Source: a virus
Length of the DNA stretch: 55,802 bases
Reading direction: 5' to 3' (one strand)
Virus record (IMG/VR): IMGVR_UViG_3300038393_001290
Span: 1 to 55,802 of that record
Position 1 is the stretch's first letter. Each line of letters begins with the position of its first letter. Below the pieces are notes generated by a model. The model made no database searches. It was not told where the DNA came from and worked only from the letters and a program-made list of their open reading frames with translations. Positions 2,097 through 53,954 of the stretch are shown here, one piece after another. A program made the position numbers and the translations under genes.

Positions 2097-2132
2097 GCGC
2101 CCCGCTGAGCAACCCTCTCACGCCCCTACACT
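2097..2132 (+). promoter_or_regulatory. Late promoter-like element, copy 1 (portal)
   Basis: GCGCCCCG-CTGAGC-16 nt-TACACT; ATG 2139 lies 6 nt after the -10 and has no SD (leaderless predicted). Confidence 0.6.
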
Positions 2133-2138
2133 CACGGC

Positions 2139-4352
2139 ATGGCCCAAGCCACGCCGACCGCCCCCGATCCCGAACAAGCCGCCCGTGACGCGCTGAAGAA
2201 GGCGCAATGCGCCCGCCGCTGGATCGCCGAACTGAATCAGTCGGAGAAAGCGCAGGCCAAGTGGCTCACCCGCTCCCGCAAGATCGTCCGCCGCTACAAG
2301 GAAGAGCACCGCTCGGACGGCGATCAGCGGCGTTTCGCCATGCTGTGGTCGAACACGCAAACGCTGCAGCCAGCGATCTACTCCCGACCGCCGCAGCCTG
2401 TGGTGTCCCGCCGCTTCGCTGACTCCGACCCCATCGCTCGCGTCGCCTCCGAGGTGCTGGAACGGGCCCTGGCCTATTCCATCGACTGCCAAGGCTTCGA
2501 CGGCGTGATGCGTCAGTCGAGCTTCGATTACGTGCTGTTGGCCAGAGGCCAGACCTGGGAGCGCTACGTTCCCACCAAAGGCCCGATGGTCACTCCGGAG
2601 ATCGAGCTTCAGGTGAAGACCGAAGGCGACGGCTATCTGGACCCGGACGGCAACGACTACGAGGGCGAGACCGAGACCCGCGAGGACGGCTCAGTGGTCG
2701 GCTTCGGCGAGCCCTATGCCCCGATCACCTACGAGGAAAGCGTCACCGACTACGTCAACTGGGAGGACTTCGGCCACTCGGTTGCCAGAACCTGGGATGA
2801 GGTCGATTACGTCTGGCGCCGGGTCTACCTGAACAGGGCCCAGCTCAAGGAGCGGTTCGGCGACGAGCTCGGCGAGCGCATCCCGCTCGACTTCTCTCCG
2901 AAGGCCCAGCAGAAGCAGGGCGACACCTCCGACTTGACCAACAAGGCCGCTATCTACGAAATCTGGTGCAAGTCGGAGAAGAAGGTCTACTGGATCTCAA
3001 AGTCCTTCAACGAAGCGCCGCTCGATGAGCGCGACGACCCGCTTCAACTGGAAGGCTTCTTCCCCTGTCCCCGCCCGCTCCTGGGAACCACGGCGAACGA
3101 CAGCGTAATTCCTCTCCCCGATTTCGTGTTCTACCAGGACCAGGCCGAGGAGATCGACAAGCTCACGGCCCGCATCGCCCATCTGCAGGACGCGCTGAAG
3201 GTCCGCGGCTTCTACGCGGCCGACCAGAAGTCAAACCTCAACAACCTCCTGAATTCCGACAATAACATCCTCATTCCGGTCACGGACTGGCAGAGCTTGA
3301 AGGAGGACGGCGGAGTCCGGAACAAGATCGAGTGGTGGCCGATCGATCTGGTGGTGAACGCCCTCAACGCGCTCATCACCCAGCGCACGCAGCTCATCAA
3401 CGACGTCTATCAGATCACCGGCATTGCCGACATTCTGCGCGGTATGAACGACCCCCGCGCCACGGCGGCGGCGGAGCAGATCAAGACCGCCTGGGGCACG
3501 CTCCGCATCCGTGACCGCCAGGTGGAGGTGATGCGGTTTGCCCGGGATGTGATCCGCATCAAGGGCCAGGTGATCGCCAAGGAGTTCAACCCCGACACGC
3601 TGAAGGCGATGACGGGCGTTCAGCTTCCGACCAACTCCGACAAGGCGCAGGTCCAGGCTCAAATCCAGCAGCTTCAGCAGCAGGCCCAACTGGCTGGCCA
3701 ACAGGCGCAGCTAGCGTGGCAGGCTCAGGCCCAAGCCTCGCAGCAACAGGGCCAACCCCCGCCGCCCAAGCCGGCCCCGCCCGCACCGCCGCAAATCCCC
3801 GACGAGCTGCAAGCCGTTCTGCGTTCGCCATCCTGGGAAGACGTGACCGCCCTCCTGCGCAACAAGGTCGCCCGCCAGTTCCGCATCGACATCGAGACGG
3901 ACTCCACTATCGAGCCGAACCAGACGGAGGAGAAGCAGCAGGCCGTCGAGCTGATCGGCGCTGTGGGCCAGATGGTCATGCAGTGGGGCCCGGCGATCCA
4001 GGCTCAACCGGCTCTGGCCCCCATGGTCGGCGAGTTCATCAAGTGGGGCGTCAGACGGTTCCGAGCCGGGCGTCAGCTCGAGGACGTGATCGACAACACG
4101 GTGGACAAGATGACCGCGGCAGCGAGCCAGCCTCAAGCGCCGCAGGGACCGCAACAGCCGCCGGTGGATCAGACCAAGTTGGCGGTCGCCTCCATCGAGC
4201 AGCAGACCGAGCAGATGGCGCAACAGGCCGAAACCCAGCGCGTTCAGATGCAGCTCGGCGTCAAGCAGCAGGAGATCGCCCAGCGGGCCGAGGAGACCCA
4301 GGCCAAGATCTACGCGTTGCCGCGTGATCCGACGCCTCAGGTGGCGGTGTAG
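2139..4352 (+). CDS. Portal (head-to-tail connector) protein
   Basis: 737 aa following the terminase region. N-terminal KIVRRYKEE...FAMLWSNTQTLQPAIYSRPPQPVVSRRF is typical of podovirus connector proteins; C-terminus is Q/A/P-rich. Confidence 0.85.
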   Translation: MAQATPTAPDPEQAARDALKKAQCARRWIAELNQSEKAQAKWLTRSRKIVRRYKEEHRSDGDQRRFAMLWSNTQTLQPAIYSRPPQPVVSRRFADSDPIARVASEVLERALAYSIDCQGFDGVMRQSSFDYVLLARGQTWERYVPTKGPMVTPEIELQVKTEGDGYLDPDGNDYEGETETREDGSVVGFGEPYAPITYEESVTDYVNWEDFGHSVARTWDEVDYVWRRVYLNRAQLKERFGDELGERIPLDFSPKAQQKQGDTSDLTNKAAIYEIWCKSEKKVYWISKSFNEAPLDERDDPLQLEGFFPCPRPLLGTTANDSVIPLPDFVFYQDQAEEIDKLTARIAHLQDALKVRGFYAADQKSNLNNLLNSDNNILIPVTDWQSLKEDGGVRNKIEWWPIDLVVNALNALITQRTQLINDVYQITGIADILRGMNDPRATAAAEQIKTAWGTLRIRDRQVEVMRFARDVIRIKGQVIAKEFNPDTLKAMTGVQLPTNSDKAQVQAQIQQLQQQAQLAGQQAQLAWQAQAQASQQQGQPPPPKPAPPAPPQIPDELQAVLRSPSWEDVTALLRNKVARQFRIDIETDSTIEPNQTEEKQQAVELIGAVGQMVMQWGPAIQAQPALAPMVGEFIKWGVRRFRAGRQLEDVIDNTVDKMTAAASQPQAPQGPQQPPVDQTKLAVASIEQQTEQMAQQAETQRVQMQLGVKQQEIAQRAEETQAKIYALPRDPTPQVAV

Positions 4353-4387
4353 CGCCCGGCTGAGAACGGTCTAGCCGACCGCAAAAT
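4352..4387 (+). promoter_or_regulatory. Late promoter-like element, copy 2
   Basis: GCGCCCGG-CTGAGA-16 nt-CAAAAT, starting at the G of the portal TAG stop; leader with AAGGGA SD before GTG 4415. Confidence 0.6.
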
Positions 4388-4414
4388 GTCCCTCACGCAA
4401 CCAAGGGACACCCA

Positions 4415-4696
4415 GTGGCGAACATCACCGTTTTTGAATTCTTCGCGGCCCCGAATGCTATCGGCGACGTCATCTGGCCGGCGGACGTTGTGACTACGAC
4501 CACGACCGCATCCACCATCAACCTGAGCGCCAACACTCGAGCGTTCATCGTCACGGCGGACGCCGATTGTCGCGCCATCGTGAACGCAAGCGGGGTTAGC
4601 ACGGCGGCGGGCGTTTCGACCTTGCCCGTCCTCTCGGCGGCGCCCAACCAATTCACCATCGCCCCGGCGAGCGGCCAATCCCTCAAGTTCGCTTAA
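4415..4696 (+). CDS. Hypothetical S/T/A-rich 93-aa protein
   Basis: GTG start 6 nt after AAGGGA; VVTTTTTASTINLSANT and GVSTAAGVSTLPVLS tracts; no recognised domain. Confidence 0.55.
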   Translation: MANITVFEFFAAPNAIGDVIWPADVVTTTTTASTINLSANTRAFIVTADADCRAIVNASGVSTAAGVSTLPVLSAAPNQFTIAPASGQSLKFA

Positions 4697-4708
4697 GGGC
4701 GGTCGCAC

Positions 4709-6304
4709 ATGAGCAGATCCACAGACCGACGCCGGGCCGCGGCGGCCCTGGCGACTGGAAGCGCCGTGGCCGCTGCTGGCGTCATTCGCTCGCGGGACCG
4801 CCGCGCGCGGATGATAGCGGCGGCGGTGATGCCGATGTTTCCGCGCAGCGTCGTCTTCATGGGCGACAGCCGGATTCAAGACGGCACGCGCTACTGGAAG
4901 AATGCCTTGTCTTCCGACTGGAAGGGGCTTCCCATCGGCTCGGGGTTCTGCGGGCCTGCCATTACGGCCGACTTCACTGATGGGCTACTGGAATTCCGCG
5001 CCTCCGACAGGTCGCTACGTTGGACCGCGTCGGGCGACACGGCCGGGGGCTGGGCGCAGATCACCCAAGCTGGGTGGGCGCAGCTTGAAAGCGCCACCGC
5101 CAACAAGCACCTGCGCGTCGGCGTGAAGAACCTGACGGGCTTTCCGGTGTCGGACCAGAGCGTGACTGTGTCGGGCTCCAGCTCGATGAACTTCGGCTGG
5201 AACGCGGTTGGCATTTGCAATCGGGCCATGAACCTCTTGCGCTGGCTTTGCCCCAGCCCGGTGTCGCTCGGCATCGGTGGCAGCACGACAGCCGACGTTA
5301 TTGAGCAACTCGCCTACTGTCAGGCCCAGGCCTCCGGCCTTGGCTGGGACATCGTCATGGTGTCCACGAACGACGTGACCGCGAGCGTGGCCGCGGCAAC
5401 CGTCACGGCCAACCTGCAAGCGATCTACGACGCGCGCCGGGCGCTGGGGCGCAAGCTGGTCATTGTCGAGAACACCGCCCGTTGGGGGGTGAATACCTCC
5501 ACCCCGCTCACCGCCGGGCAGATCGCCATCTTCGACGCCGTGCGGGCCTTCAACCAGACCTACGCCGCCCAGCACGATTGCGTCTATGTGGACAGCTATC
5601 TGCTGACCTACGACAGCGGCTTTTCGGATCGGCGGCCAGCCGCGGGGATGCTCCGCGACACGGTTCATCCGACCGACAACGGCTGCCAGATCATCGCCGC
5701 AGAACTCGTCCGGCTGCTCAAGCGGCGCACAGGGCCGGGACGTTTCCGAACGAGCGCCGATAGCAACACCTTCGCCAACGGCCTCCTGAATGGGACCGGC
5801 GGTACGCTGGGAACGGGCGCCAGCGGTCAGGTCGCGACGGGGTGGACCGTGGGTCGAGCGACTGGCACGGATGGAACCGCGACGTGCTCGGTGATCGATC
5901 GAACGGACGGCGGCGCGGGCAAGATGCAGCGTATCCAGTGCGCCAACACGACCGCCGGCTGGATGGAATTCACCGCCACGGCTTCGGGTGTCACGTTGGC
6001 GGCGCTCGGCCTGGCGGTGGGCGATACGGTCTATTACGAGATCGAGTACGAGGTGACGAGCCCGGTCGCCTTGCAGAACATCGCCGCGCAGGCATTCTTC
6101 ACCGGCGCGAGCCCGACCACGGCGCTGACCTGCAACGTCGAGACCTCCAACGTCTTCCTGGCGGAGGCGGGGACGATGCGAACCCCGCCGGCCAAGATAC
6201 CGGCGGGGACCACAAACGTGCGGCCGACCAACTACCTGAAGTTCGGCGCCAACGGCTCGGCTGACGTGAAGTTCGGCGTTTGCCGCATCGTCAAGGCCGC
6301 TTAA
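4709..6304 (+). CDS. SGNH/GDSL hydrolase-fold protein with Tat-like signal and C-terminal beta-rich (CBM-like) domain
   Basis: Blocks VVFMGDSR (I), IGGSTTAD (II), VSTNDV (III), DTVHPTD (V); N-terminal DRRRAAAALATGSAVAAAG resembles a twin-arginine signal. Confidence 0.75.
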   Translation: MSRSTDRRRAAAALATGSAVAAAGVIRSRDRRARMIAAAVMPMFPRSVVFMGDSRIQDGTRYWKNALSSDWKGLPIGSGFCGPAITADFTDGLLEFRASDRSLRWTASGDTAGGWAQITQAGWAQLESATANKHLRVGVKNLTGFPVSDQSVTVSGSSSMNFGWNAVGICNRAMNLLRWLCPSPVSLGIGGSTTADVIEQLAYCQAQASGLGWDIVMVSTNDVTASVAAATVTANLQAIYDARRALGRKLVIVENTARWGVNTSTPLTAGQIAIFDAVRAFNQTYAAQHDCVYVDSYLLTYDSGFSDRRPAAGMLRDTVHPTDNGCQIIAAELVRLLKRRTGPGRFRTSADSNTFANGLLNGTGGTLGTGASGQVATGWTVGRATGTDGTATCSVIDRTDGGAGKMQRIQCANTTAGWMEFTATASGVTLAALGLAVGDTVYYEIEYEVTSPVALQNIAAQAFFTGASPTTALTCNVETSNVFLAEAGTMRTPPAKIPAGTTNVRPTNYLKFGANGSADVKFGVCRIVKAA

Positions 6305-6366
6305 GCGCCGCAGTTCCGATCCGGGCGGGGGAATGATAGCGTCACGTCCTGGTGGGCGGGGGCGTG

Positions 6367-7317
6367 ATGGTTGAAGTGGGGATTGAGACCGCTCGTGAGA
6401 AGCTGAATTCGATCCAGCTTCTCCGGGCGCTGGCGGCTTTGGCAGTCGTGGCCGATCACACGCTTCTCGTCATCGACCGCTGGGCGGGCGCAGCCTGGAT
6501 GGCCCCTCTTGCCCGAGCCATGGGAGCTGGTGGCGTCTACCTGTTCTTCGTCATCTCCGGCTTGATAATGCTGCACACGTCGGGGCGGGAGTTCGGCCAG
6601 CCGGGCGGGTGGCGGCGATTTCTGACAAGGCGGCTGGAACGGATTGTGCCGCTCTACTGGCTCGTGACGGGAACGCGCGTGGCGGGGAGGGTGGTTCTTG
6701 GACGCCGCCTAGACTGGCCGCTGATCGCAAGCTCGCTCCTGTTCTTCCCCCACCTCAACGATGGGAAGATGCGCCCACTAATCGGCATGGGTTGGACCCT
6801 GAACTACGAGATGCTGTTCTATGTCTTGTTTGCGGTGGCCCTGTTGCTGCCGCGCCGGATCGGTTTGGCCGCGCTGTTCGGATCTTTCGGAGTCCTGGCC
6901 GTGGCTGGGCTGGCAATCAACCCAACCCTGGCCGCGGCGGTGACGCCGGTCCAGTTCTGGACGGCTCCAATCATCCTGCTGTTCGTGGCGGGCGTGGCGA
7001 TCGGGCTGATGCGGGAGCGGATCGCGCCGCTCCTGCGCTGGAACCCGGAGAACTGGGGGCTTCTCGGCCGGCTGGCGTTGCTGCTGGGGAACGCCTCTTA
7101 TAGCATCTACCTCTGGCAGGGGCTCGCCTCGGCGATTGTGACTAAGGCCTGGATGATGACCGTGGGGCCGCAGTTCGCACCCGTCTACTTCGTTGCCATG
7201 CTTGCGGGAGCTGCGGCGCTTGGCGTCGCGTCCTATTGGTTCTTTGAGCGTCCGGTGGCGGCGTTCTTCAGGTCGCGCCGCCGAATTGCCGCCAGCTCAG
7301 CGCTAGCGCCAGCCTGA
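6367..7317 (+). CDS. Acyltransferase-3 family integral membrane O-acyltransferase (OatA/OafA/Oac type)
   Basis: LNSIQLLRALAALAVVADH signature followed by roughly ten hydrophobic segments; GTG 6352 is an alternative start. Confidence 0.8.
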   Translation: MVEVGIETAREKLNSIQLLRALAALAVVADHTLLVIDRWAGAAWMAPLARAMGAGGVYLFFVISGLIMLHTSGREFGQPGGWRRFLTRRLERIVPLYWLVTGTRVAGRVVLGRRLDWPLIASSLLFFPHLNDGKMRPLIGMGWTLNYEMLFYVLFAVALLLPRRIGLAALFGSFGVLAVAGLAINPTLAAAVTPVQFWTAPIILLFVAGVAIGLMRERIAPLLRWNPENWGLLGRLALLLGNASYSIYLWQGLASAIVTKAWMMTVGPQFAPVYFVAMLAGAAALGVASYWFFERPVAAFFRSRRRIAASSALAPA

Positions 7318-7667: not shown

Positions 7668-7703
7668 GCGCTCGCCTGAGAACACCGCCGTAAGGCCCAT
7701 TAT
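7668..7703 (+). promoter_or_regulatory. Late promoter-like element, copy 3
   Basis: GCGCTCGC-CTGAGA-16 nt-CATTAT; ATG 7710 lies 6 nt after the -10 (leaderless predicted). Confidence 0.6.
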
Positions 7704-8060: not shown

Positions 8061-8096
8061 GCTCTCCGCTGAGAACGTGTTGGCCGGCCCTAGTCT
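8061..8096 (+). promoter_or_regulatory. Late promoter-like element, copy 4
   Basis: GCTCTCCG-CTGAGA-16 nt-TAGTCT; ATG 8103 lies 6 nt after the -10. Confidence 0.6.
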
Positions 8097-8762: not shown

Positions 8763-9337
8763 GCTTCATCCTGAAGCTGCTGTTGGGCGTCCAGTCGTAC
8801 CTCACGACGTGGCGATTCAACCCAATCGACAAGAACACTGACGTCACGCTCTCGGCCGACCATCGGACGATCTCGCTCAGCGTCTCCAGCTCCTTCCCGC
8901 TCGGTGCGCGCGCCAACGGCTATCCGGTGACTCCAGGCAAATGGTACGTCGAGATGACGGCTGTGGCCGTTGCCGGGGCCACGGATAGCGTTGGGGTCGG
9001 CGACCTCACTCAATCGACCGGGATCACCGTGGGGTCGGGCGCTGGCAGCTGCGGTTACAGTGCGGACGGAAGTATCCTGCTCAATGGAAGCTCCGTCGCA
9101 ACCTATGCGACCTTCACGACCGGGGATGTGATCAGCTTCGCAATCAACGCGACTTTGAACAAGATCTGGTTCGCCAAGAACGGCGTCTGGCAGAGCGGCA
9201 ATCCCGCCACGGGAACTGGCGGGATCAGCCTCACGGCCTTGACCTACTATCCGATGGCCGTGATGAACACCGGCGGCTCATGGTCCATTCCGCTGACGCC
9301 GACTTATCCCGCGCCCGGCGGCTTCACTGTCCGATAG
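8759..9337 (+). CDS. SPRY/B30.2 (concanavalin-like) domain protein
   Basis: GKWYVEMTAV...VGVGD...GYSADGSILLNG...GDVISFAIN...IWFAKNGVW; ATGA overlap with the upstream stop. Confidence 0.65.
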   Translation: MSFILKLLLGVQSYLTTWRFNPIDKNTDVTLSADHRTISLSVSSSFPLGARANGYPVTPGKWYVEMTAVAVAGATDSVGVGDLTQSTGITVGSGAGSCGYSADGSILLNGSSVATYATFTTGDVISFAINATLNKIWFAKNGVWQSGNPATGTGGISLTALTYYPMAVMNTGGSWSIPLTPTYPAPGGFTVR

Positions 9338-10034
9338 CTGCGCTGATCTCGGCGAACGGCGGGAGCTCGCCATGCTTGCGGATCGCAACCAGGGTGCTGG
9401 TGATCTGCTCGATGGTAACGGTCCCATAAATCGCGGTGGCCGCGACGAGTTCGTGGATCATCTGCGATAGCGGGATGCCGCCGTCCTTCAGCGAGGCCGC
9501 CGGGTGGAAATCCGGCCAGTAGGACCAACCCCAGTCCTCAATCACATAGATTCCGCCGACTGCGAGCCGTGGAAAGAGGATATCGAAGCAGCGCGTCGTG
9601 TAGCCGTAGTTGTGCGAGGCGTCGTCTATGATGAGGTCCGCCGGTCGATCTCCGAAGGCGCGCAGGACGATCTCGGGCAGCTTGGCCGGGTCGTCCTGCG
9701 AGACGCCGAAATGAAGGCGCATCCGCGTGGTGTAGCCGAGCCGGTCGATGTGGTGGCCGATGGCCGGATTTCCGCGCGCCCAGTCTATGCCGAGGATGGC
9801 GGCGCTTGGGAACATATCCGCCAACATGAGCGCCGATCCGCCCTGATGGACACCGACCTCGATGATCCGGTGCGGGTCAGGGCAGAGGCGTGCATATTCG
9901 CGGACGAGCGAGCCGGGCTTCAGAATGACGATCTCGTTTTCAGTCGTCTTGTGCGCGGCGAAGTCGCTCGTGACATAGCGCACCGGAACGCCTCCGAGGA
10001 AGCCTTCTGCGTCCATATCTCGCGCTTGCTGCAT
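9324..10034 (-). CDS. Class I SAM-dependent methyltransferase (CmcI / sugar O-methyltransferase-like)
   Basis: IIEVGVHQGGSALMLA (SAM motif I-like) and DLIIDDASHNYGYT...GGIYVIEDW; antisense to the surrounding late genes. Confidence 0.6.
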   Translation of the reverse strand: MQQARDMDAEGFLGGVPVRYVTSDFAAHKTTENEIVILKPGSLVREYARLCPDPHRIIEVGVHQGGSALMLADMFPSAAILGIDWARGNPAIGHHIDRLGYTTRMRLHFGVSQDDPAKLPEIVLRAFGDRPADLIIDDASHNYGYTTRCFDILFPRLAVGGIYVIEDWGWSYWPDFHPAASLKDGGIPLSQMIHELVAATAIYGTVTIEQITSTLVAIRKHGELPPFAEISAAIGQ

Positions 10035-10054: not shown

Positions 10055-10090
10055 GCGCCCGGCTGAGCAGTCCCGGCGCTGCCGCATCAT
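10055..10090 (+). promoter_or_regulatory. Late promoter-like element, copy 5
   Basis: GCGCCCGG-CTGAGC-16 nt-CATCAT; ATG 10097 lies 6 nt after the -10. Confidence 0.55.
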
Positions 10091-10634: not shown

Positions 10635-10955
10635 ATGTGCATCGGCTGTTATGAAGACTACGAACTGCCGCGCATCGTTACGCCGGAAGTCGTCGCTATG
10701 TCTGAGCGGATCAAGAGCGCCAATCCATTCGGCGGCTTACACATCGTGGTCGAAGATTGGAACCTAGAAGATCTTGACATCGAGTTCTGCCGCGATAGCG
10801 ACGACGCAACCAACGAAGAGCGTCAATTGGCGTCGGACTTGCTCGCGATGACGCTTGAGCAACGCGCTTCCGCGATGGCCTTGGCAGACGGCTACCTGCT
10901 GCCGAACGGCGAGTTTTCCGAGTTCGTCAAGGACGCGCTGACACCGGCCGATTAG
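10635..10955 (+). CDS. Hypothetical acidic 106-aa protein (visibly lower GC than its neighbours)
   Basis: D/E-rich (HIVVEDWNLEDLDIEFCRDSDDATNEE); TAGAGT hexamer lies 7 nt upstream of the ATG; preceded by a 184-nt non-coding stretch. Confidence 0.6.
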   Translation: MCIGCYEDYELPRIVTPEVVAMSERIKSANPFGGLHIVVEDWNLEDLDIEFCRDSDDATNEERQLASDLLAMTLEQRASAMALADGYLLPNGEFSEFVKDALTPAD

Positions 10956-10990
10956 CGCTTCGCTGAGAACCCCCCGCTCTCCGCCAAACT
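10955..10990 (+). promoter_or_regulatory. Late promoter-like element, copy 6 (head assembly operon)
   Basis: GCGCTTCG-CTGAGA-16 nt-CAAACT; leader with AGGAGAG SD before TTG 11013. Confidence 0.6.
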
Positions 10991-12557: not shown

Positions 12558-13366
12558 ATGGCCTCTCCCGGCCTTTCCGAAATCGTCACGACCACGCTGC
12601 GCAACCGTAGCGGCGTGATCGCTGACAACATGAGCAAGAACAACGCGCTGTTGTTCCGGCTCAACAAGCGTGGTCGCGTCAAACCGCTTTCGGGCGGTCG
12701 GACGATCGTGCGCGAGCTGAGCTACGCCGAGAACTCGACGTTCCAGCGTTACTCGGGCTACGAGATCCTGAACACTTCGCCCAGCGACGTGATCAGCGCG
12801 GCCGAGTTCAACTGGAAGCAAGCTTCCGTCGCCGTCACCATGTCGGGTCTGGAGCAATACCAGAACTCCGGCGAAGACGCTCTGCTGGACCTCCTCGAAG
12901 CCCGCATCGACGTGGCCGAGAAGACCATGCAGAACAACCTGTCGTCCGACATGTACTCGGACGGCACGGCGTCGAGCGGCAAGCAGATCGGCGGCCTTCA
13001 GCTCCTCGTGGCTGACGACCCGACGACCGGCACTGTCGGCGGCATCAACCGGGCCACCTACACCTTCTGGCGCAACCAGAAGTACCAGGCGACCTCGGAT
13101 GGCGGCTCGGCGGCTTCTGCGACCAACATCCAGAAGTACATGAACGCGCTGTATCAGAAGTGCACGCGTCAGACCGACCGTCCGGACCTGATCGTCGCGG
13201 ATACGAACTACTACAACTTCTACCTGAACAGCCTGCAAGCTATCCAGCGGATCACCTCCGACGAGATGGCTCAGGCCGGCTTCCAGTCGCTCAAGTACAT
13301 GGGCGCGGATGTGGTGTTCGACGGCGGGGTGGGCGGCGCTTGCCCGTCCAACCACCTCTACATGCT
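12558..13366 (+). CDS. Major capsid protein, exon 1 (codons 1-269 plus 2 nt)
   Basis: Position after the scaffold gene. The uninterrupted ORF runs 10 more codons into the insert and stops (…HLYMLKDSANHTVH*); joining to 14132 restores a 323-aa ORF. Confidence 0.75.
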
Positions 13367-14131
13367 TAAGGACTCTGCGAACCACACGGTTCACTGAGTC
13401 AGGGCCAGCTAAGGACTAGAGAGAGAACCGCACGTGTTTCAGCTCAGTGATACGACGAGCAAGGTCTTCGCGGTAAGCGAAGATTTCGTCGCGCTGCGGG
13501 TGGACCGCGTGATGGCAACCGAGCTTGTGCTTCCATTCGTCAATGGATCTCTGGAGTTCCAGCGCAAGTTCGGCCTCATCTCGTTTGACGACCAAGTACG
13601 GAACAACGCGACGAAGGAAAGCGGCGGCCTTCTGGCTGGCGCAGTACCAGAGGAATTGGTCGCGGTGCTTCGGATTGCGCCGGCTGTGCGGGTTGACATT
13701 GAGCGACCCGCCGTAGGTGTTGTGCAGGCTCCGGATAACGGGCGCGTGCGACATGCCGATGGCGAGAAGGATTTGGTAGCGCGTGTGGATGCTGTTGGGC
13801 TTGGCCCACTTGCTGACGCGCACCCAGCCCTCTCCATCGAACAGGCCGGCGGCGTAGCGGTCGTCAAGCGTGATGGTCACTCTCTGAGCCTTAGGCTGAA
13901 TGCTGGTGAATTCGGTGGAAGCCCCATGCCCGGCTCGAAAGAGCGCGGAAGGGTAACGCCGAGCCAAGCAGGCGACCGTGACGGGTCGCCGGGCGTGTGT
14001 AACGAGCAGGGACCAGCCCCGAAAGGGAAGGCGTGCTCTGAACTCCGTAGGAATACGGAGAGGTCGGCAGAAATGACCGGCCCGGCGCAGCAAGTATCAT
14101 TCGATGATTCTACTGCGCAGGTAACAGATTG
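13367..14131 (+). mobile_element. Intervening sequence in the capsid gene; group I intron-like, with an antisense homing-endonuclease gene
   Basis: Exon ends in U and the insert ends in G. There are multiple perfect hairpins (13371-13400, 13932-13965, 13971-13990, 14043-14060 with a GGAA loop, 14085-14118). Stem 13409-13423/13880-13894 encloses the endonuclease ORF. Confidence 0.6.
13416..13880 (-). CDS. LAGLIDADG homing endonuclease (single-motif, 154 aa, GTG start)
   Basis: YAAGLFDGEGWVRVSKW... LAGLIDADG motif near the N-terminus; size and PYLVVKRDEAELALEL region fit I-CreI-type enzymes; AAGG precedes GTG 13880. Confidence 0.8.
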   Translation of the reverse strand: MTITLDDRYAAGLFDGEGWVRVSKWAKPNSIHTRYQILLAIGMSHAPVIRSLHNTYGGSLNVNPHSRRNPKHRDQFLWYCASQKAAAFLRRVVPYLVVKRDEAELALELQRSIDEWKHKLGCHHAVHPQRDEIFAYREDLARRITELKHVRFSL

Positions 14132-14651: not shown

Positions 14652-14677
14652 CCGCGACCAGTACCAAGCGTAGGGGA

Positions 14678-14709
14678 GGGGGCGGTCTTTCGGGGCCGTC
14701 CCCTTCTTC
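14678..14709 (+). terminator. Intrinsic terminator
   Basis: GGGGGCGG/CCGTCCCC stem (one G-U pair), 10-nt loop, then TTCTTCA; immediately followed by promoter copy 7. Confidence 0.5.
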
Positions 14710-14713
14710 ATGC

Positions 14714-14749
14714 GCGCTCCACTGAGAAGGGGTCTGGCGGTCGCACGAT
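14714..14749 (+). promoter_or_regulatory. Late promoter-like element, copy 7
   Basis: GCGCTCCA-CTGAGA-16 nt-CACGAT; leader with GGGGAGG SD before ATG 14781. Confidence 0.6.
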
Positions 14750-15388: not shown

Positions 15389-15585
15389 GCCGCTACGTCC
15401 TGAGGCACGCGGAGAGCCGCCGCTACCTGCACGCAAGCACACAGCGGCGCAAACCCCTCCTCACGGAGGAGTTGGAGGAGGCCAAGGTCTTTCAGGCCAC
15501 TCGCCCCTATGTCTCGGGGCTGGGGAGGGGGCTTGACGGCTTCGAATGGGTGGCCGTGCGGCTGGTGCTTGGCGAGGCGGTCTGA
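15385..15585 (+). CDS. Hypothetical 66-aa protein (GTG start)
   Basis: Translationally coupled at both ends. Confidence 0.5.
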   Translation: MSRYVLRHAESRRYLHASTQRRKPLLTEELEEAKVFQATRPYVSGLGRGLDGFEWVAVRLVLGEAV

Positions 15586-17153: not shown

Positions 17154-17326
17154 GCGAACCCCTGCGCATCCCCTACATCATGGCGGCCGAGATGGGATCG
17201 TTCGCGCTCGCCGCGATGCGCGACCAGATGAAAGAGACCGTCGAGCGCGAGACCGGACAGCCCCACGTCTGGCGAACCTGCATCAACATGGACGCGATCG
17301 AGCTTGTCCCCGAGGACGGCCAATGA
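17150..17326 (+). CDS. Hypothetical 58-aa protein (GTG start)
   Basis: GTGA overlap upstream, ATGA overlap downstream. Confidence 0.45.
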   Translation: MSEPLRIPYIMAAEMGSFALAAMRDQMKETVERETGQPHVWRTCINMDAIELVPEDGQ

Positions 17327-17979: not shown

Positions 17980-18434
17980 GGTATTACCTCGACACCGAGT
18001 TCAACGGTTTCGGCGGCGAGCTGATCAGTCTCGCGCTAGTGCGGGAGGATGGTTACAGCCTCTACGTGATCTATCGGCTGCCGGATGAAATCGAGCCGTG
18101 GGTTGCGGAAAACGTCATCCCGATCCTACACGAAGACCGCTGCCTCAATATCGCGATGCAGATAAGCCCGCCGACCGGCGCTAGGTTCATCGCCGACTTC
18201 TTGGCGGGCGACCCCGACCCGGTGATCATCACCGATTGGCCGGATGACATCCGCTACTTCTGCCAAGCCGTGATCGTCGGCCCCGGCCAGATGGTCAACA
18301 TTCCCGGCCTCAAGTTCGAAATGCACCGCGTGGACGCCTACCCGACCACGCTACCCGGCGCTGTCCAGCACAACGCGTGGTGGGACGCCATGGCCCTCCG
18401 TCACCTCTTCCAAGCCCAGAAGGTCGCCGCATGA
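17976..18434 (+). CDS. DEDD-type 3'-5' exonuclease (Rv2179c-like)
   Basis: MRYYLDTEFNGFGGELISLALV (ExoI D-x-E motif at the extreme N-terminus), about 150 aa. Confidence 0.65.
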   Translation: MRYYLDTEFNGFGGELISLALVREDGYSLYVIYRLPDEIEPWVAENVIPILHEDRCLNIAMQISPPTGARFIADFLAGDPDPVIITDWPDDIRYFCQAVIVGPGQMVNIPGLKFEMHRVDAYPTTLPGAVQHNAWWDAMALRHLFQAQKVAA

Positions 18435-45577: not shown

Positions 45578-45946
45578 ATGACCCGCGACGGCCTTCAACG
45601 CGCCTTGCTGGACCTTGGGTGGATTTCGCTGACGCAGCGAGCGCTCGGCATCCGGCCGGCTGAGGCCTACGCGCTTCGGCAGCTTACGCGCCGGCCCGGA
45701 ACCCCCGTCACGCTTCGCTCGATTGCCGATGAATACGGCGACAAGGGCGGCTTCTGCACCGGCAGCGACGACGCTATCCGGAAGCGTGTCGAGCGCGTCC
45801 GAACCGCGCTGAGTGACGTCGGCTGCGAAGGCGCAATCCAGACCATCGTGGGCGCCAAGGCCTATGTCGTGGAGCCGCGAGACGCGCGCCGCATCGAGAA
45901 TGCGGTGCTGTACGCCTGCGGCATCGAAATCTCGGAGGCCGCATGA
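45578..45946 (+). CDS. Winged-helix (OmpR/PhoB C-terminal-like) DNA-binding protein
   Basis: AIRKRVERVRTALSDVGCEGAIQTIVGAKAYVV resembles the trans_reg_C recognition helix and wing. Confidence 0.5.
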   Translation: MTRDGLQRALLDLGWISLTQRALGIRPAEAYALRQLTRRPGTPVTLRSIADEYGDKGGFCTGSDDAIRKRVERVRTALSDVGCEGAIQTIVGAKAYVVEPRDARRIENAVLYACGIEISEAA

Positions 45947-47646: not shown

Positions 47647-47819
47647 TGCACGTTCCCGGCTGGAAGCCGACTTGGTGGCGTCGTGCCCAACTCGTGTGGG
47701 TCGTGCCGATCTACATCATCCTTTTCCTGCCAGTGGCGTGCTGGATCGGGCTTCGCGAGCTCGGTAATCCGGTCACAGACCTGCCGCAGCTGGTCGCCGA
47801 CATTTGGCGGGGGGCGTGA
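47646..47819 (+). CDS. 57-aa membrane protein
   Basis: LVWVVPIYIILFLPVACWIGL transmembrane segment. Confidence 0.4.
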   Translation: MHVPGWKPTWWRRAQLVWVVPIYIILFLPVACWIGLRELGNPVTDLPQLVADIWRGA

Positions 47820-48586
47820 TGCGCGTCGCCGGAATGTTCGACGGCATCGGCGCTTTCGGCCTCGGCCTAGAGCGCGCCGGCCACACCGTAGTTTCGCACA
47901 CCGAAAAGGACCCCGACTGCCAGCGGATCCTCCGCAAGCATTGGCCCGACGTGCCGCTGCATGACGACGTGACCACCCGCGAATGGAAGGAAGGCGAGGC
48001 TGATGTCATCTGCGCAGGCTTCCCCTGTCAGGACGTTTCCCAGATGGGGCCGCGCACCGGACTGGCCGGGTCGCGTTCTGGACTGTGGCGGGAGGTGGTG
48101 CGAGCCCTTCGCGTGGTGGGACCAAAGTACGTCCTGCTGGAGAACGTGGAACGCCTGCGCAAGCGAGGTCTGGGAACGGTTCTCGGAGACCTGGCCGAGA
48201 GCGGGTATGACGCGGAGTGGGATTGCATACCGGCGAGCCACGTTGGCGCCCCGCACATACGGGACCGGATTTGGGTCGTCGCCCAGCCACAGCATCCCGA
48301 CCCCGTGCGCGCAAGACCACATAAAGCGCCGCTGCACCTCGTCGGAAGCGCTGAACTTTTCGACCAACAAGAGCGTGTCTCTGGACCGATGGGCGCGCCG
48401 CTGGCCGCTGCCCTGGCTCGGGTGGGATCAGCCTGCGGTCGAGCGTGGGATGCCGAGCCGCAGCTTCCTCGAGTGGCTGATGGATCTCCCGCCGACGTGG
48501 CTTGCGTAAAGCAGGCCGGCAATTCGCTCGTGCCGCGGGTCGCCGAGGCCATCGGACTGGCGATCACTGACGGGGTGGCCGCATGA
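47819..48586 (+). CDS. DNA (cytosine-5) methyltransferase
   Basis: Motifs FDGIGAFGLG (I), GFPCQDVS (IV), ENV (VI), RDRIW (VIII), QAGNSLVP (X); short target-recognition region. Confidence 0.85.
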   Translation: MRVAGMFDGIGAFGLGLERAGHTVVSHTEKDPDCQRILRKHWPDVPLHDDVTTREWKEGEADVICAGFPCQDVSQMGPRTGLAGSRSGLWREVVRALRVVGPKYVLLENVERLRKRGLGTVLGDLAESGYDAEWDCIPASHVGAPHIRDRIWVVAQPQHPDPVRARPHKAPLHLVGSAELFDQQERVSGPMGAPLAAALARVGSACGRAWDAEPQLPRVADGSPADVACVKQAGNSLVPRVAEAIGLAITDGVAA

Positions 48587-48927: not shown

Positions 48928-49233
48928 ATGCTCCCCCTCACCACCAAGCAAGCCGAGTTCAAGGCGCTGATCCAGAGCCGCACGCGCCAGGGCGTCCCGC
49001 CGACGTTCGAGGAACTGTCCCAAGCCTCCGGCCTAGTGAAGTCCGGCGTCCACCGGATGATCTCCGAGCTGAAGAAGCGCGGCCACGTCGATTTCGTGCC
49101 GAACCGGCGCCAGACGCTTCGCATCATTGAGCCGGATCTTCCCTCGCTCGAGGGCCTGACCCGCAAGCAGCTCGTCCGGCTGCACGCTCAGATCGAGGCG
49201 GCGCTGGCCGATCGTTTCGCGGAGCGCGTCTGA
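48928..49233 (+). CDS. LexA N-terminal DNA-binding-domain-like winged-helix protein (no peptidase domain)
   Basis: LTTKQAEFKALIQSRTRQGVPPTFEELSQASGLVKSGVHRMISELKKRGHV. Confidence 0.6.
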   Translation: MLPLTTKQAEFKALIQSRTRQGVPPTFEELSQASGLVKSGVHRMISELKKRGHVDFVPNRRQTLRIIEPDLPSLEGLTRKQLVRLHAQIEAALADRFAERV

Positions 49234-49724
49234 TGGCGCAGATCACCCGAGAACTCGCCAAGCAGATCCTCAAGGATCGCACGGCCGGCCTGTCATACCG
49301 GCAAATCACCATCAAGCATGGCATCGCGAAAGGTTCCGCGCAGAGCATCGTCTGGCGCTTTGAGCGCGGCGGAAACGTCGGCGGCGGGTTCGCTCGCCCG
49401 AAGCCTTGGACCCCGCCCGAGATCGACGCGCTGAGGTCCCTCGCAGATCAGGGAATTTCCGTCTCCCGCATGGCGCAGCTCCTCCACCGTTCCGAGGAGC
49501 GCATCCGCCCCATGCTCAGGGAACTGCTCGGCAAGCCTTACGTGTCTCGGCCCTCCGAGGCGCTGGCCGAAGAGCGCCGGGCTTACCTCGCCAAGTGCAA
49601 GAGCGAGGCGATCGCCAGGCGCCCGAACGATCACCTGGCTCATTGCCTCGCCGTGATCCGAGCCAACAACGGCTGCGGCTATCCGGCTTACGAGATCCCG
49701 CCGACCTACCGGGTGGCCGCGTGA
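49233..49724 (+). CDS. Two-HTH protein; second half GcrA/Myb-like
   Basis: GLSYRQITIKHGIAKGSAQSIV and KPWTPPEIDALRSLADQGISVSRMAQLL; the GcrA similarity is tentative. Confidence 0.45.
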   Translation: MAQITRELAKQILKDRTAGLSYRQITIKHGIAKGSAQSIVWRFERGGNVGGGFARPKPWTPPEIDALRSLADQGISVSRMAQLLHRSEERIRPMLRELLGKPYVSRPSEALAEERRAYLAKCKSEAIARRPNDHLAHCLAVIRANNGCGYPAYEIPPTYRVAA

Positions 49725-51012: not shown

Positions 51013-51015
51013 GCC

Positions 51016-51810: not shown

Positions 51811-51813
51811 CCC

Positions 51814-52722: not shown

Positions 52723-52913
52723 AGCAACCGCCCGTCTCCGACTTCGTGCTGCGCTCATGCTGGCTGAAGGAGGCCTTCACCTGCAGAAGTCTCGCGCAAA
52801 GGGCGGCTACGCGGATCAACAACACGTCAAGCAAGCGGGTTCGCATCCACGTGGAGCCGTTCAGGTGCCGGGTCTGTGGGGCATTCCACATCGGCAAGAG
52901 GAAGAAGCCATGA
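52719..52913 (+). CDS. Hypothetical 64-aa protein with CxxC near the C-terminus
   Basis: ATGA overlap; RCRVCGAFHIGKRKK. Confidence 0.5.
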   Translation: MKQPPVSDFVLRSCWLKEAFTCRSLAQRAATRINNTSSKRVRIHVEPFRCRVCGAFHIGKRKKP

Positions 52914-52950
52914 CCTAGGCCGCTTGGGGCCGATCACGAGGAACACGCCA

Positions 52951-53370
52951 TTGACCCGCATCATCCACGGCATCAGCCGGGAGCTGCTTAGGGCCGCGTT
53001 CTGCGACTACTTCGGCGTGGCTGAGGAGCACGCGGATATCCTGGTGCTGCTCTATGAGCGGCCAGGAGAACCGATCCCGACAAAGGATCTTGCCAAGCTC
53101 CTGAATAGCCATCGGCCCCCGACGCGAGGGGCGATCCATGAGCGCATCCGGTTCCTTCGGGAGGGGATGGAAGCCGAGAGCTTGGATTCCGGCAGCCACT
53201 TGGATGACCGGGGTTACAGCCTGACGGAGATCGGCCTGGGGGAGTGCGCCAAGGCTCTCCGCGTCATGGCGGAAGCGCTCGCCAAGTGTGGGCCGGCGAC
53301 GATGCTTGCGGGGCGGAACGTGGAGGCGATCCGGCGGGGTGAAGAACCCCAACAGCTCAGGTCCGCGTAA
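52951..53370 (+). CDS. Winged-helix (OmpR-like) protein, TTG start
   Basis: GAGGAA 8 nt before TTG 52951; AIHERIRFLREGM...DDRGYSL resembles the 45578 protein. ATG 52876 is an alternative start. Confidence 0.45.
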   Translation: MTRIIHGISRELLRAAFCDYFGVAEEHADILVLLYERPGEPIPTKDLAKLLNSHRPPTRGAIHERIRFLREGMEAESLDSGSHLDDRGYSLTEIGLGECAKALRVMAEALAKCGPATMLAGRNVEAIRRGEEPQQLRSA

Positions 53371-53439
53371 CGCCCAAAACCACCCGCTTTGTAGCAGCTT
53401 TTTCCTTGTGATTCAACCCGTTATGTGGGAAGCTAGAGC

Positions 53440-53709
53440 ATGGCATCTGAGATGATAGAGCGAGTGGCTCGGGCGCTGGCCATTGCGGATGGCAGGGACC
53501 CTGAAGGGCACAGCATCGAGCTTCGCGACGGGTCGCTCCATCTCGGCAAGCAGTGGGAGGCGTTTGTCCCGACCGCCCGCGCAGCCATCGAGGCCATGCA
53601 GGAACCGATGCCAGAGATGATGGCGGCCATCAGCCTCCAAACATCGACCGATGGCTGCGTGAACTACCGCGCCATGCTCAACGCCGCCCGAGCGGAGCCC
53701 GCGAAGTGA
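53440..53709 (+). CDS. Hypothetical 89-aa protein
   Basis: ORF after a 69-nt lower-GC spacer; no recognised domain. Confidence 0.55.
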   Translation: MASEMIERVARALAIADGRDPEGHSIELRDGSLHLGKQWEAFVPTARAAIEAMQEPMPEMMAAISLQTSTDGCVNYRAMLNAARAEPAK

Positions 53710-53930
53710 GCGAGGAGCTGATCGCATTCCGAAAGCCGGGCGGTGGTACCATCCCGATTTGGGCGAGTGAGGTCGAGACCTACGGCCCAGCGCCCGTGCG
53801 GGGATCGCAGATCGACCTCAAGGATGGAACCCGCATTCGAGTCGATAACACCTGCCGGAAGGTCTTCGATCTGCTCTCGGCTACCGGGTGGAGTTTTCCA
53901 GCCAATCCCAGCACGCCCGCGCCCCGCTGA
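53706..53930 (+). CDS. Hypothetical 74-aa protein (GTG start)
   Basis: GTGA overlap; its TGA stop lies inside the CTGAG core of promoter copy 10. Confidence 0.5.
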   Translation: MSEELIAFRKPGGGTIPIWASEVETYGPAPVRGSQIDLKDGTRIRVDNTCRKVFDLLSATGWSFPANPSTPAPR

Positions 53931-53954
53931 GAACACCCCCCGCCAAGCCATACT
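53919..53954 (+). promoter_or_regulatory. Late promoter-like element, copy 10 (packaging operon)
   Basis: GCGCCCCG-CTGAGA-16 nt-CATACT; ATG 53960 lies 5 nt after the -10. Confidence 0.6.

Follow-up and report, generated by a model that had tools for sequence, protein, structure and literature searches.

In pho promoters, PhoB acts through region 4 of sigma, and its box stands in place of the -35 region beside a sigma-70-type -10 element; the usual targets of OmpR/PhoB proteins are tandem direct repeats. The late region of the temperate podophage described here resembles this type (including SARP/AfsR, ToxR and TcpP) in that a winged-helix protein would bind a box that replaces the -35 region next to a sigma-70-type -10 hexamer, and the family profile of the candidate protein matches the DNA-binding domains of PhoB, PmrA and CarR, while ToxR, CadC, TcpP and AfsR are among the Foldseek matches of its model. 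It differs in that the candidate is phage-encoded, would serve a late regulon, stands alone at 139 aa and stays under the Pfam threshold when scored by itself, while the phage box has no tandem direct repeat.

Comparable arrangements are also found among phages. The middle promoters of T4 (MotA/AsiA, ‘sigma appropriation’) likewise occur in multiple copies with a sigma-70-type -10, and a phage-specific box near -30, read by a phage DNA-binding protein, replaces the -35 region at a tightly fixed distance. The present phage, unlike T4, is temperate and it is its late genes that are regulated; no AsiA-like protein has been identified in it, and the ‘double-wing’ DNA-binding domain of MotA contrasts with the OmpR-type winged helix modelled here, the N-terminal domain of MotA being a weak Foldseek match of the candidate (E 0.053). 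Mu, P2/186/P4 and P1 have 4 to about 11 late promoters, and their phage-encoded activators (C protein in Mu; Ogr, B and Delta in P2/186/P4; Lpa in P1) are made before the late genes. Their late promoters, too, share an activator site at or upstream of a poor -35 region. However, these activators are helix-turn-helix dimers or zinc-finger proteins that act mostly on inverted repeats, the sequence and position of the box differ, and none of these phages is known for leaderless late mRNAs or for promoters squeezed into the gap from one stop codon to the start codon that follows. Mycobacteriophage L5 (stoperators) and Cluster K phages (start-associated sequences) likewise have numerous short, asymmetric repeats that share one orientation and lie at gene boundaries, where they often touch a stop or start codon. 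Stoperators, however, are repressor sites without a fixed -10 partner; in the present element a -10-like hexamer accompanies every copy at a rigid distance, and many copies also have an ATG where +1 is predicted. In the ‘sigma adaptation’ promoters of mycobacteria, the site of the winged-helix activator PafBC takes the place of the -35 region (PMC8635444), but PafBC is a large WYL-domain host protein of the DNA damage response, from an unrelated family and with a different motif.

An element in eleven copies across the late region

The window analysed is the whole 55.8-kb contig of the phage, whose host is probably a Caulobacterales-type bacterium, as judged from sequence; the nearest named relatives of its portal protein are from Phenylobacterium soli (68%) and Caulobacter sp. 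(54%). The late region extends from 53.9 kb across the contig end to 32.5 kb and holds all copies of the element, and the immunity region lies at about 44-45.5 kb. The phage also carries a gene for a C5 cytosine methylase.

A sequence-only reading had reported ten plus-strand copies of a 16-nt box, each followed exactly 14 nt later by a yAnnnT hexamer, and both observations are confirmed. The 16-mer GCKCYYSVCTGAGMAV has exactly 10 matches, all on the plus strand, where 0.03 are expected from shuffles (0 of 100 shuffles reached this count), and the hexamer lies exactly 14 nt downstream of all 10. The relaxed pattern GC-N6-CTGAG-N18-A-N3-T gives 11 matches, all on the plus strand (0.60 expected), the eleventh at 18895. 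A weight matrix whose 58 training sites all came from other contigs ranked the same 11 sites at the top of the window with 18.3-32.0 bits, the next best site scoring 10.7 and the maximum in shuffled sequence being 15.2. The copy at 18895, previously called weak and placed inside a CDS, is a genuine eleventh copy, since it recurs at the same position within the homologous gene of the relatives L098 (4081) and L148 (9975). In late-region order, the copies and two hairpins are:

53919-53954, plus strand: predicted late promoter copy 1, first in the late region; 32.0 bits; box GCGCCCCGCTGAGAAC, hexamer CATACT
2097-2132, plus strand: predicted late promoter copy 2; 31.6 bits; portal ATG (2139) 6 nt past the hexamer, leaderless geometry
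4352-4387, plus strand: predicted late promoter copy 3; 28.1 bits; G of the portal TAG stop is box position 1
7668-7703, plus strand: predicted late promoter copy 4; 28.4 bits; ATG (7710) of a 114-aa gene 6 nt past the hexamer, leaderless geometry
8061-8096, plus strand: predicted late promoter copy 5; 25.9 bits; ATG (8103) of a 219-aa tail-fibre-like gene 6 nt past the hexamer, leaderless geometry
10055-10090, plus strand: predicted late promoter copy 6; 26.8 bits; ATG (10097) 6 nt past the hexamer, leaderless geometry
10955-10990, plus strand: predicted late promoter copy 7; 30.7 bits; short leader with conserved ribosome-binding site GCAGGAGAG
14668-14713, plus strand: terminator-like hairpin, GC-rich with a pyrimidine-rich tail, closing the head unit right before copy 8
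14714-14749, plus strand: predicted late promoter copy 8, of the modification and tail-adaptor unit; 23.9 bits; leader of about 31 nt
18895-18930, plus strand: predicted late promoter copy 9, inside CDS 18377-19009; 23.0 bits; hexamer GACAAT
24088-24119, plus strand: terminator-like hairpin right before copy 10
24124-24159, plus strand: predicted late promoter copy 10, of the ejection and virion-protein unit; 18.3 bits; long leader
31473-31508, plus strand: predicted late promoter copy 11, heading the lysis cassette; 23.5 bits

The elements split the late region in the order already proposed, namely packaging, portal, accessory genes, head, modification/tail, ejection and lysis, and eleven promoters would make each late module a separate transcription unit. 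Copy 1 precedes the genes for a 61-aa protein, a GIY-YIG protein, TerS and TerL, with a short leader that includes a GGAGAG ribosome-binding site, and has counterparts in L002 and L003. The arrangement of copy 2 ahead of the portal gene recurs in L001-L003. Copy 3 precedes a 93-aa gene (GTG at 4415), a lipase-like gene and an acetyltransferase gene, its counterpart at 8165 of L001 lying ahead of the homologous gene, and the counterparts of copy 5 precede the same gene (MADKDYSQ...) in L001, L005, L148 and others. Copy 6 may restart plus-strand transcription after a minus-strand methyltransferase gene. Copy 7 heads the head module (a 102-aa gene, a 392-aa gene and the major capsid protein), with counterparts at 16973 of L001, 17711 of L003 and 10852 of L098; copies 8 and 10 correspond to 7908 and 829 of L098. 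Copy 9 is upstream of the gene 19011-19376 and the adaptor gene, and the lysis cassette after copy 11 comprises a 26-aa membrane peptide, an 89-aa gene and an endolysin (31865-32347).

The elements had been described as beginning at or just after the preceding stop codon. At 8061 and 31473 a stop codon precedes the box by 2-6 nt, the G of a TAG stop is box position 1 at 10955 as at 4352, and the TGA of ORF 53553-53930 sits within CTGAG at 53919. The description does not apply at 10055, where the box comes after the start of a minus-strand gene and not after a stop. Folding bore out the hairpins noticed before copies 8 and 10, with -32.3 kcal/mol at 14668-14713 (z -5.45; 0 of 200 shuffles folded as well), which a generic terminator scan did not pick up, and -26.0 kcal/mol (z -2.8) at 24088-24119. 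As these strong hairpins immediately precede the copies, transcription would need to restart there.

Predicted promoter geometry and conservation in relatives

A search with GC-N6-CTGAG left the hexamer unconstrained, so the -10 signature was not imposed. Among 112 unique plus-strand occurrences, 69 carry A at position 32 together with T at position 36, while the same pair at any other offset is found in 0-9 of them; none of the 41 minus-strand occurrences has A32/T36. An ATG follows the hexamer at exactly 6 nt in 28 of the 69 sites and at 7 nt in 6 more. With this ATG as +1, the mRNA would be leaderless and the A and T of the hexamer would occupy -11 and -7, a placement that would make the elements sigma-70-type promoters with a non-canonical -35 region and a transcription start about 7 nt after the hexamer. 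The earlier promoter interpretation, a -35-like CTGAGA, a 16-nt spacer and a -10-like hexamer, thus holds as far as sequence can tell; the leaderless geometry had not been part of it. In Caulobacter, 375 leaderless mRNAs are translated as well as leadered ones (PMC4117421). The claim of eight further conserved positions upstream does not stand, as only G1 and C2, both part of the search pattern, are invariant before CTGAG in the family sites, and positions 3-8 are merely biased.

It is highly improbable that the element is a non-promoter signal acting in RNA (processing, translational reinitiation or coupling) or a site in the DNA that serves packaging, recombination or methylation. In favour of such readings, the element is placed between a stop codon and the following start with fairly constant distance, and many boxes start with GCGC in a phage that has a cytosine methylase. 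However, GCGC is not invariant (G3 in 46/69 sites, C4 in 40/69), and downstream of the box only an A and a T are invariant, at a single offset and with four positions from one to the other. With their long leaders, or with a hairpin or divergent gene ahead of them, several copies are no simple stop-start junctions; one (18895) lies inside a CDS, and no Rfam family matched.

The motif is present in every relative with a portal identity of at least 54%, at 69 unique sites that are all on the late-gene strand (0 opposite), and is absent from about 70 loci with a portal identity of 53% or less. Syntenic copies are located ahead of the portal gene, the tail-fibre-like gene, the head module and the ejection unit, after the head unit, and inside the g18377 homologue. 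When IMG/VR was scanned for the DNA pattern, loci with several copies turned up almost exclusively on contigs with the portal, capsid or regulator genes of this clade. The earlier suggestion of a dedicated phage-encoded factor is strengthened by the conservation of the motif among relatives, by its rigid spacing and by the ATG that stands where +1 is predicted.

Such a factor could also be a repressor. In a stoperator-type arrangement, as in L5, the prophage repressor or the 139-aa protein would bind the box and silence promoters that are active by themselves, or stop elongation within the late region. The asymmetric, singly oriented sites at gene boundaries fit this, often overlapping stops (TA just before box position 1 makes TAG in 17 of 53 sites), and with 8 of 12 matches to the sigma-70 consensus in CTGAGA and the hexamer, weak intrinsic activity is conceivable. 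We nevertheless consider it quite improbable: a roadblock needs neither a fixed distance to a -10-like hexamer nor an ATG at +1, and the candidate protein is encoded in the lytic operon beside the packaging genes, outside the immunity region. Moreover, the invariant C and G of CTGAG differ from TTGAC exactly where the host sigma prefers T and C, which argues for activator dependence and not for a repressed strong promoter. Some activator-independent recognition by the host sigma may still occur, CTGAGA being identical to TTGACA at 4 of 6 positions, and the host may have promoters of this kind as well.

A candidate activator ahead of the first copy

Two conserved genes flank the first copy:

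52951-53370, plus strand: candidate late activator, a stand-alone 139-aa winged-helix protein (P0121); the longest ORF starts at 52876
53972-54157, plus strand: conserved 61-aa protein (MDHPTYLE...), encoded by the first late-region gene in nearly all relatives

No sigma factor or RNA polymerase was found among the proteins scanned (several small ORFs lie outside the scan), in line with the earlier remark on RNA polymerase. The three regulators then suggested are not retained: among the related phages, a single one has a homologue of the two-HTH protein (49233-49724) and not one has a homologue of the LexA-DBD-like protein (48928-49233), while the gene of the HTH-phosphoesterase (30280-31470) belongs to the late genes. 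The 139-aa protein, which had not been considered, is most likely the factor that reads the box. Its gene is the last conserved one ahead of the first late promoter and lies in the lytic rightward operon downstream of the replication genes, the usual place of late activators and not of repressors.

In all clade contigs that cover the region, the first box comes directly after the candidate regulator gene, although this co-occurrence could reflect shared ancestry alone within the portal clade. Homologues of 38-50% identity are found on other contigs, and one of these (L208) has another type of small terminase. Among 7 distinct homologue contexts there are 5 in which the 3' end of the regulator gene overlaps or adjoins a box, and in L208 and L212 the ATG of the downstream gene is 6 nt past the hexamer; the distant contexts L209 and L215 have no box nearby.

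The 139-aa protein has no Pfam or PHROG match above threshold, Trans_reg_C being sub-threshold only (E 0.06). Its AlphaFold2 model (pLDDT 87.9) has as top Foldseek matches winged-helix DNA binders such as ToxR, CadC, CovR, TcpP and AfsR, with an rmsd of 2.0-2.7 Å over about 75 residues and a best E of 0.027. The profile of the wider family matches the DNA-binding domains of CarR (5.4e-6), PmrA/BasR (1e-4) and PhoB (7e-3), and 19 of 79 family members match Pfam Trans_reg_C (best E-value 1.8e-7). The modelled fold class thus resembles OmpR/PhoB-type winged helices, with a long C-terminal helix and no receiver, BTA or membrane domain.

In another reading, the elements are late promoters but their box is served by the host, through an alternative or ECF-type sigma or through an activator peculiar to Caulobacterales, or else by some phage protein other than the 139-aa one, for instance the 61-aa protein or an early regulator that is not conserved. 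Rigid, single-valued spacing is typical of ECF-type sigmas, the motif is limited to phages of one host group, the 139-aa protein is only remotely similar to known activators, and the 61-aa protein, for which no Pfam or PHROG match was found, co-occurs with the motif about equally well. This is nonetheless unlikely, for the -10 keeps only the A-11/T-7 of primary-type sigmas, unlike the CGT-type -10 of ECF sigmas, host-only control would leave the late genes of a lysogen uncontrolled, and the regulator gene and first box travel together onto contigs with a different terminase type. The 61-aa gene is downstream of the first box and so cannot initiate late transcription; its product could be an accessory factor or part of the late-promoter system.

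The reading that we hold to be probable is that the elements are late promoters whose box is read by the 139-aa winged-helix activator together with the host primary-sigma polymerase. The rightward early/middle operon would yield the OmpR/PhoB-like protein. For the host polymerase, the A at -11 and the T at -7 would suffice as a minimal -10 element, but it would be unable to use the -35 region unaided, as the phage-specific box occupies -42 to -27. In this box G and C stand at -42/-41, and CTGAG takes up -34 to -30 and mostly has AA after it. The activator would bind this box and recruit or position the polymerase, and in about half of the sites transcription would start at the A of the start codon, giving a leaderless mRNA; the remaining sites would have a short leader with a ribosome-binding site. 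Hence, the system would be an activator-dependent phage late regulon, which is a known kind, and a new example of it.

Phage, late region and copies of the box

The window, which is the entire 55,802-nt metagenome contig (G+C 62-68%), has the gene content of a temperate podophage, with Mx8, Brucella Tb and Bradyrhizobium ppBjS10J-1 as distant relatives. Megablast of 25 kb found no DNA-level match among GenBank phages, and the Rfam and tRNA scans of the window returned nothing. The nearest named portal relatives are those of Phenylobacterium soli (68%) and Caulobacter sp. UC70_42 (54%), and hence the host is probably a member of the Caulobacterales. A prophage of P. soli is on contig QFYQ01000002 (GCA_003254475.1). 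The large terminase is split across the contig ends, so that the contig looks circularly permuted or complete. By third-position G+C, the rightward genes begin near 45.5 kb and run past the contig end as far as about 32.5 kb, and the leftward early genes extend from about 45.3 to 32.6 kb. The genes needed for what follows are listed below.

Principal genes of the window
1-1299 and 55344-55802, large terminase (TerL), split by the contig ends; 31-1299 is the C-terminal half
2139-4352, portal
12558-13397, major head protein
from 24240, ejection and virion proteins
31865-32347, endolysin
35827-37014, minus strand, integrase
52951-53370, plus strand, P0121, the candidate late activator (139 aa as called, within the ORF 52876-53370)
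53972-54157, helical protein of 61 aa (MDHPTYLEQF...), the first gene past the first putative late promoter in nearly all relatives
54868-55347, small terminase (TerS), Sf6-type

The packaging genes are flanked by homing-endonuclease-like genes, GIY-YIG (54276-54881) before TerS and HNH-like (1515-2084) after TerL. Sugar- or polysaccharide-modifying genes (glycosyltransferase/MptE-like, FkbM methyltransferase, O-acetyltransferase, lipase/GDSL-like) occupy 15546-17979 and 4709-7317 of the late region; they are placed behind putative late promoters and not behind the 'moron' promoters expressed in lysogens.

The sequence-only reading had described ten copies of a 16-nt box, each followed 14 nt later by a yAnnnT hexamer, which together form a putative late promoter of 36 nt. 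The degenerate 16-mer GCKCYYSVCTGAGMAV was recovered ten times, to the nucleotide and always on the plus strand, where shuffled sequences lead one to expect 0.03 matches, and the hexamer follows every copy at that distance. Two mismatches raise the count to 25 against 13.9 expected, which is near chance, and the exact set of ten therefore stands apart. The looser pattern GC-N6-CTGAG-N18-A-N3-T matches 11 times, again only on the plus strand (0.6 expected). The eleventh match is the copy at 18895, which had been noticed as a weaker one; since it is among the copies that are syntenic between phages, lying inside the homologue of the same gene in two related contigs (L098, position 4081; L148, position 9975), it is predicted to be a real eleventh promoter embedded in a CDS. 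Scoring of the motif against this genome, proposed earlier as a check, was done with a weight matrix trained on 58 sites from outside the window only: the 11 sites took the top ranks with 18.3-32.0 bits, the next-best site of the window scored 10.7 and the best of the shuffled sequence 15.2. No copy was found in the early regions on either strand or anywhere on the minus strand of the window. A generic promoter and terminator scanner missed all 11 copies as well as both hairpins described below.

Copies of the box, all on the plus strand, and what they precede
53919, the 61-aa gene, the GIY-YIG gene, TerS and TerL
2097, the portal gene
4352, 7668, 8061 and 10055, small accessory units, four in all, comprising a 93-aa gene together with an acetyltransferase gene and a lipase-like one, a 114-aa gene, a gene resembling tail fibres and a 117-aa gene
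10955, the head module
14714, the adaptor in one unit with transferases
18895, within CDS 18377-19009
24124, the unit of the ejection proteins
31473, the lysis cassette

The copies span from 53.9 kb through the contig end to 31.5 kb and divide the late region into the same units as had been proposed. The terminator-like hairpins reported directly upstream of 14714 and 24124 proved strong, with -32.3 kcal/mol (z -5.45) and -26.0 kcal/mol (z -2.8), respectively. The copies had also been said to begin at or just after the stop codon of the preceding gene; this holds elsewhere in the set, but the copy at 10055 follows the start of a methyltransferase gene on the minus strand (9324-10034). That gene lies inside the late region, and the copy right after it would restart transcription of the plus strand. 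Behind the 4352 copy, the leader carries a small inverted repeat (GTCCCT...AGGGAC, 4388-4414) just before the GTG start at 4415, and the homologue of this gene in the related contig L001 is leaderless instead. For the 53919 copy, comparison with the relatives L002 and L003 places the true gene start at the second ATG (53972), preceded by GGAGAG.

Distribution among relatives and geometry of the putative promoter

The comparison set consisted of contigs encoding relatives of the portal and contigs encoding relatives of P0121. The motif is present on the late-gene strand, and never on the opposite strand, in every contig with a portal identity of at least 54%, which we call the clade; it is absent from about 70 loci with an identity of 53% or less. 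Likewise, it is absent from Bradyrhizobium phage ppBjS10J-1, in which no common motif was evident on visual inspection of the sequences ahead of the late genes. After removal of duplicates, 69 unique sites remained. When IMG/VR was scanned without bias for a 14-base pattern, 112 stretches were obtained; those with at least two copies almost all carry the portal, capsid or regulator genes of the clade, and the remainder are single and chance-like. Two stretches from the DNA scan (L132 and L174), with two weak matches each and no clade genes, were judged to be chance. Counts of strand-biased 8-mers, made to look for analogous motifs in relatives further away, mainly reflected codon bias, and profile searches of genome contigs with the portal and the regulator alignments found no relatives.

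The spacing of the element is rigid. When GC-N6-CTGAG was collected without imposing the A...T pair of the hexamer, 69 of 112 unique plus-strand occurrences had A at position 32 and T at position 36; any other offset gave the pair in 0-9 of the 112, and the minus-strand occurrences gave it in 0 of 41. There is not even one base of slack between box and hexamer. An ATG begins exactly 6 nt past the hexamer in 28 of the 69 sites and at 7 nt in 6 more; in the window, 6 nt is the distance for four genes, those starting at 2139 (portal), 7710, 8103 and 10097. If transcription starts at the A of that ATG, the conserved A and T would fall at -11 and -7, CTGAG at -34 to -30, and the conserved G and C at -42/-41. 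The bases at -11 and -7 are the two that sigma-70-family factors flip out of the -10 element. With the ATG as +1, the A at -11, the T at -7 and the fixed distance to the start are thus those of a sigma-70-type -10 element, and the sigma70-like geometry proposed earlier is upheld in this respect, the pair being tied to one offset. Read as a -35 element with a 16-nt spacer, CTGAGA agrees with TTGACA at 4 of 6 positions, and its invariant C and G depart from the consensus T and C. The element could in principle be an RNA or DNA signal and no promoter at all; this is unlikely, because the hexamer is held at a rigid offset and the ATG is placed at the predicted +1.

Sites that have no ATG at that distance show short leaders with a purine-rich ribosome-binding site. 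For example, the ribosome-binding site of the head module, GCAGGAGAG, is kept in three relatives (L001, L003 and L098). Leaderless mRNAs are common and efficiently translated in Caulobacter, where 375 of them make up 9.6% of the CDSs (PMC4117421).

Several known elements were considered and rejected since the matching features are absent, namely the alphaproteobacterial LexA box (GTTC-N7-GTTC), GANTC/GcrA sites, CtrA boxes and ECF-type -35/-10 pairs. The window also encodes a C5 cytosine DNA methylase (47804-48586), and many boxes begin with GCGC; as GCGC is not invariant in the family (G3 in 46 and C4 in 40 of 69 sites), a link to methylation is doubtful.

P0121 and its linkage to the first box

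Among the window proteins of at least about 100 aa, neither a sigma factor nor an RNA polymerase was recognised with Pfam or PHROG, in line with the earlier statement that a single-subunit RNA polymerase gene is lacking. The three regulators proposed by the sequence-only reading fare poorly: the two-HTH protein has a homologue in just one related phage, the LexA-DBD-like protein has none in the related phages, and the HTH-phosphoesterase is itself a late gene. Near the start of the late region, the only proteins conserved in relatives are P0121 and the 61-aa protein. The latter, with homologues in L001-L014 and L018-L021, matched nothing in Pfam or PHROG; it may assist packaging as an accessory protein or act as a co-factor of transcription.

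P0121 has no match in the Pfam and PHROG scans. Its 38 close homologues are 57-83% identical to it and share an invariant stretch around SHRPP...ERxRxxRE. The AlphaFold2 model (pLDDT 87.9) has its best Foldseek matches in the PDB among winged-helix DNA binders, with E-values of just 0.03-0.2. These include the OmpR/PhoB-type proteins ToxR, CadC, CovR, CssR, TcpP and AfsR (rmsd 2.0-2.7 Å over about 75 residues), and MarR-type matches (MepR) score just as well. Against Trans_reg_C (PF00486), P0121 gives an E-value of 0.061 and 13.8 bits, under the 26.2-bit cut-off, and 10 of the 38 close homologues likewise match below threshold. An exhaustive HMM search recovered only 119 family representatives among 1.84 billion proteins, and none of the isolated phages encodes the regulator. 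In the wider family, 19 of 79 members match Trans_reg_C with E-values of 0.01 or lower (best 1.8e-7). A search of the PDB with the close-family profile gave no sequence match; the wider-family profile matched the DNA-binding domains of CarR (5.4e-6), PmrA/BasR (about 1e-4 to 5e-4) and PhoB (7e-3). From the model and these profiles, we read P0121 as a remote, stand-alone winged helix of OmpR/PhoB-like type, its own score being too low for formal membership of Trans_reg_C. Among the distant members of the wider family, 3 of 79 match Pfam GcrA (best E 1.7e-5) and 2 of 79 match Sigma70_r4 (best E 1.1e-4), which hints at a link to proteins acting on sigma-70. Another small protein, encoded at 45578-45946 by the gene that opens the rightward early operon, bears a weak resemblance to Trans_reg_C (E 0.0089); its helix pattern is like that of P0121, and it has no homologue in the related loci.

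The regulator gene is found in every motif-bearing contig that covers the region and is missing from the examined stretches of the motif-less relatives L024-L096. In every clade contig covering the region, it is the last conserved gene ahead of the first box. Distant homologues (36-50% identity) on other contigs carry more weight: the 3' end of their gene is overlapped or adjoined by a box in 5 of 7 distinct contexts (L207, L208, L210, L212 and L213/L214); no box was found at that end in L209 and L215. For example, in L212 the TGA stop codon of the regulator lies inside CTGAG and the next ATG stands 6 nt past the hexamer, and in L208 the next gene, a small terminase of Terminase_2 type, has its ATG at the same distance. 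The chance of the core pattern in a 200-nt window is below 1% by our estimate from base composition, and hence the regulator gene appears to move as one module with its presumed first target.

In the relative L002, the stop codon of the regulator directly abuts the box. In the window, the regulator gene and the first box are some 550 nt apart, and this interval (53440-53930) holds two small ORFs, 53440-53709 and the C-terminal portion of 53553-53930. Upstream of the gene preceding the regulator homologue, L208 (9560-9660) carries several tandem and inverted copies of TGTCACCG/GTGACA, which may be iterons or an operator array.

Two other readings of the box were weighed. A host factor or another phage protein might read it, as would fit the rigid spacing and the restriction to one host group; we consider this improbable, because the -10 is of the type described, late genes need control in a lysogen, and the regulator gene is linked to the box. 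The box might also be a repressor site resembling the stoperators of L5-type phages, since asymmetric sites in one orientation at stop codons would fit such a role. Stoperators, however, stand alone and are bound by the immunity repressor, whereas every copy here has a -10-like hexamer as partner at a rigid distance, and the ATG at +1 argues against it as well. In the window, moreover, the rightward lytic operon ends with the regulator gene, past the replication genes, where late activators sit and immunity repressors do not. A repressor site is thus very unlikely.

A candidate late regulon and its relation to known systems

Two features of a late regulon are found together, namely a cis element confined to late genes in their orientation and a co-occurring phage-encoded protein that is predicted to be a winged helix and to bind DNA. 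What is shown is at the level of sequence; that the elements act as promoters, which sigma factor they use and that P0121 binds them are inferred. The holoenzyme with the primary sigma factor of the host would read the minimal -10 element, and P0121 would bind GC-N6-CTGAG(AA) at -42 to -27, standing in for a proper -35 element and recruiting or positioning the polymerase, with transcription starting about 7 nt past the hexamer. Each late module would be transcribed independently from one of 11 promoters, two of which would restart transcription past terminator-like hairpins.

A more specific proposal, to which we give a low probability, is that P0121 founds an undescribed family of stand-alone phage winged-helix proteins and acts as a surrogate -35 reader. 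A monomer on one asymmetric site would be held fast against sigma region 4 or the beta flap, and this would account for the one spacing that is allowed. In that case the regulator gene with its first box would form a portable 'late switch' between phage backgrounds that also delivers leaderless mRNAs, with the 61-aa protein possibly a reinforcing co-factor.

The proposed replacement of the -35 element by an activator would be shared with PhoB at pho boxes and with other OmpR/PhoB or SARP activators, and there is a functional resemblance to the MotA boxes of T4 and to the multi-promoter late regulons of Mu, P2/186/P4 and P1. If the surrogate -35 reading is true, P0121 would be a one-protein counterpart of sigma appropriation by MotA/AsiA of T4. 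The present system differs from all of these in its own box sequence, in a stand-alone, putatively winged-helix protein of an unannotated family, in the rigid spacing, in a frequent leaderless output (predicted) and in its packed stop-to-start layout. It differs also in having no direct repeat in the box; OmpR/PhoB-type proteins usually bind tandem direct repeats, whereas none is evident within the 16 nt from a reading of position counts. Activator-dependent late regulons are a well-known general principle, and the system is a further case of it and not a new kind of system.

What is gained is a complete and testable map of late-gene transcription, with 11 promoters, their starts and a single candidate activator, all of them predicted, for a group of temperate phages and prophages, so far uncultured, in bacteria of the Caulobacter and Phenylobacterium type. 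A role for the P0121 family would annotate a recurring 'hypothetical protein' beside terminase genes. The compact layout of stop codon, putative 36-nt promoter, 6 nt and start codon is a clean natural system for leaderless expression in alphaproteobacteria, and Caulobacter genetics might use the box with its candidate activator as a promoter that is both orthogonal and switchable.
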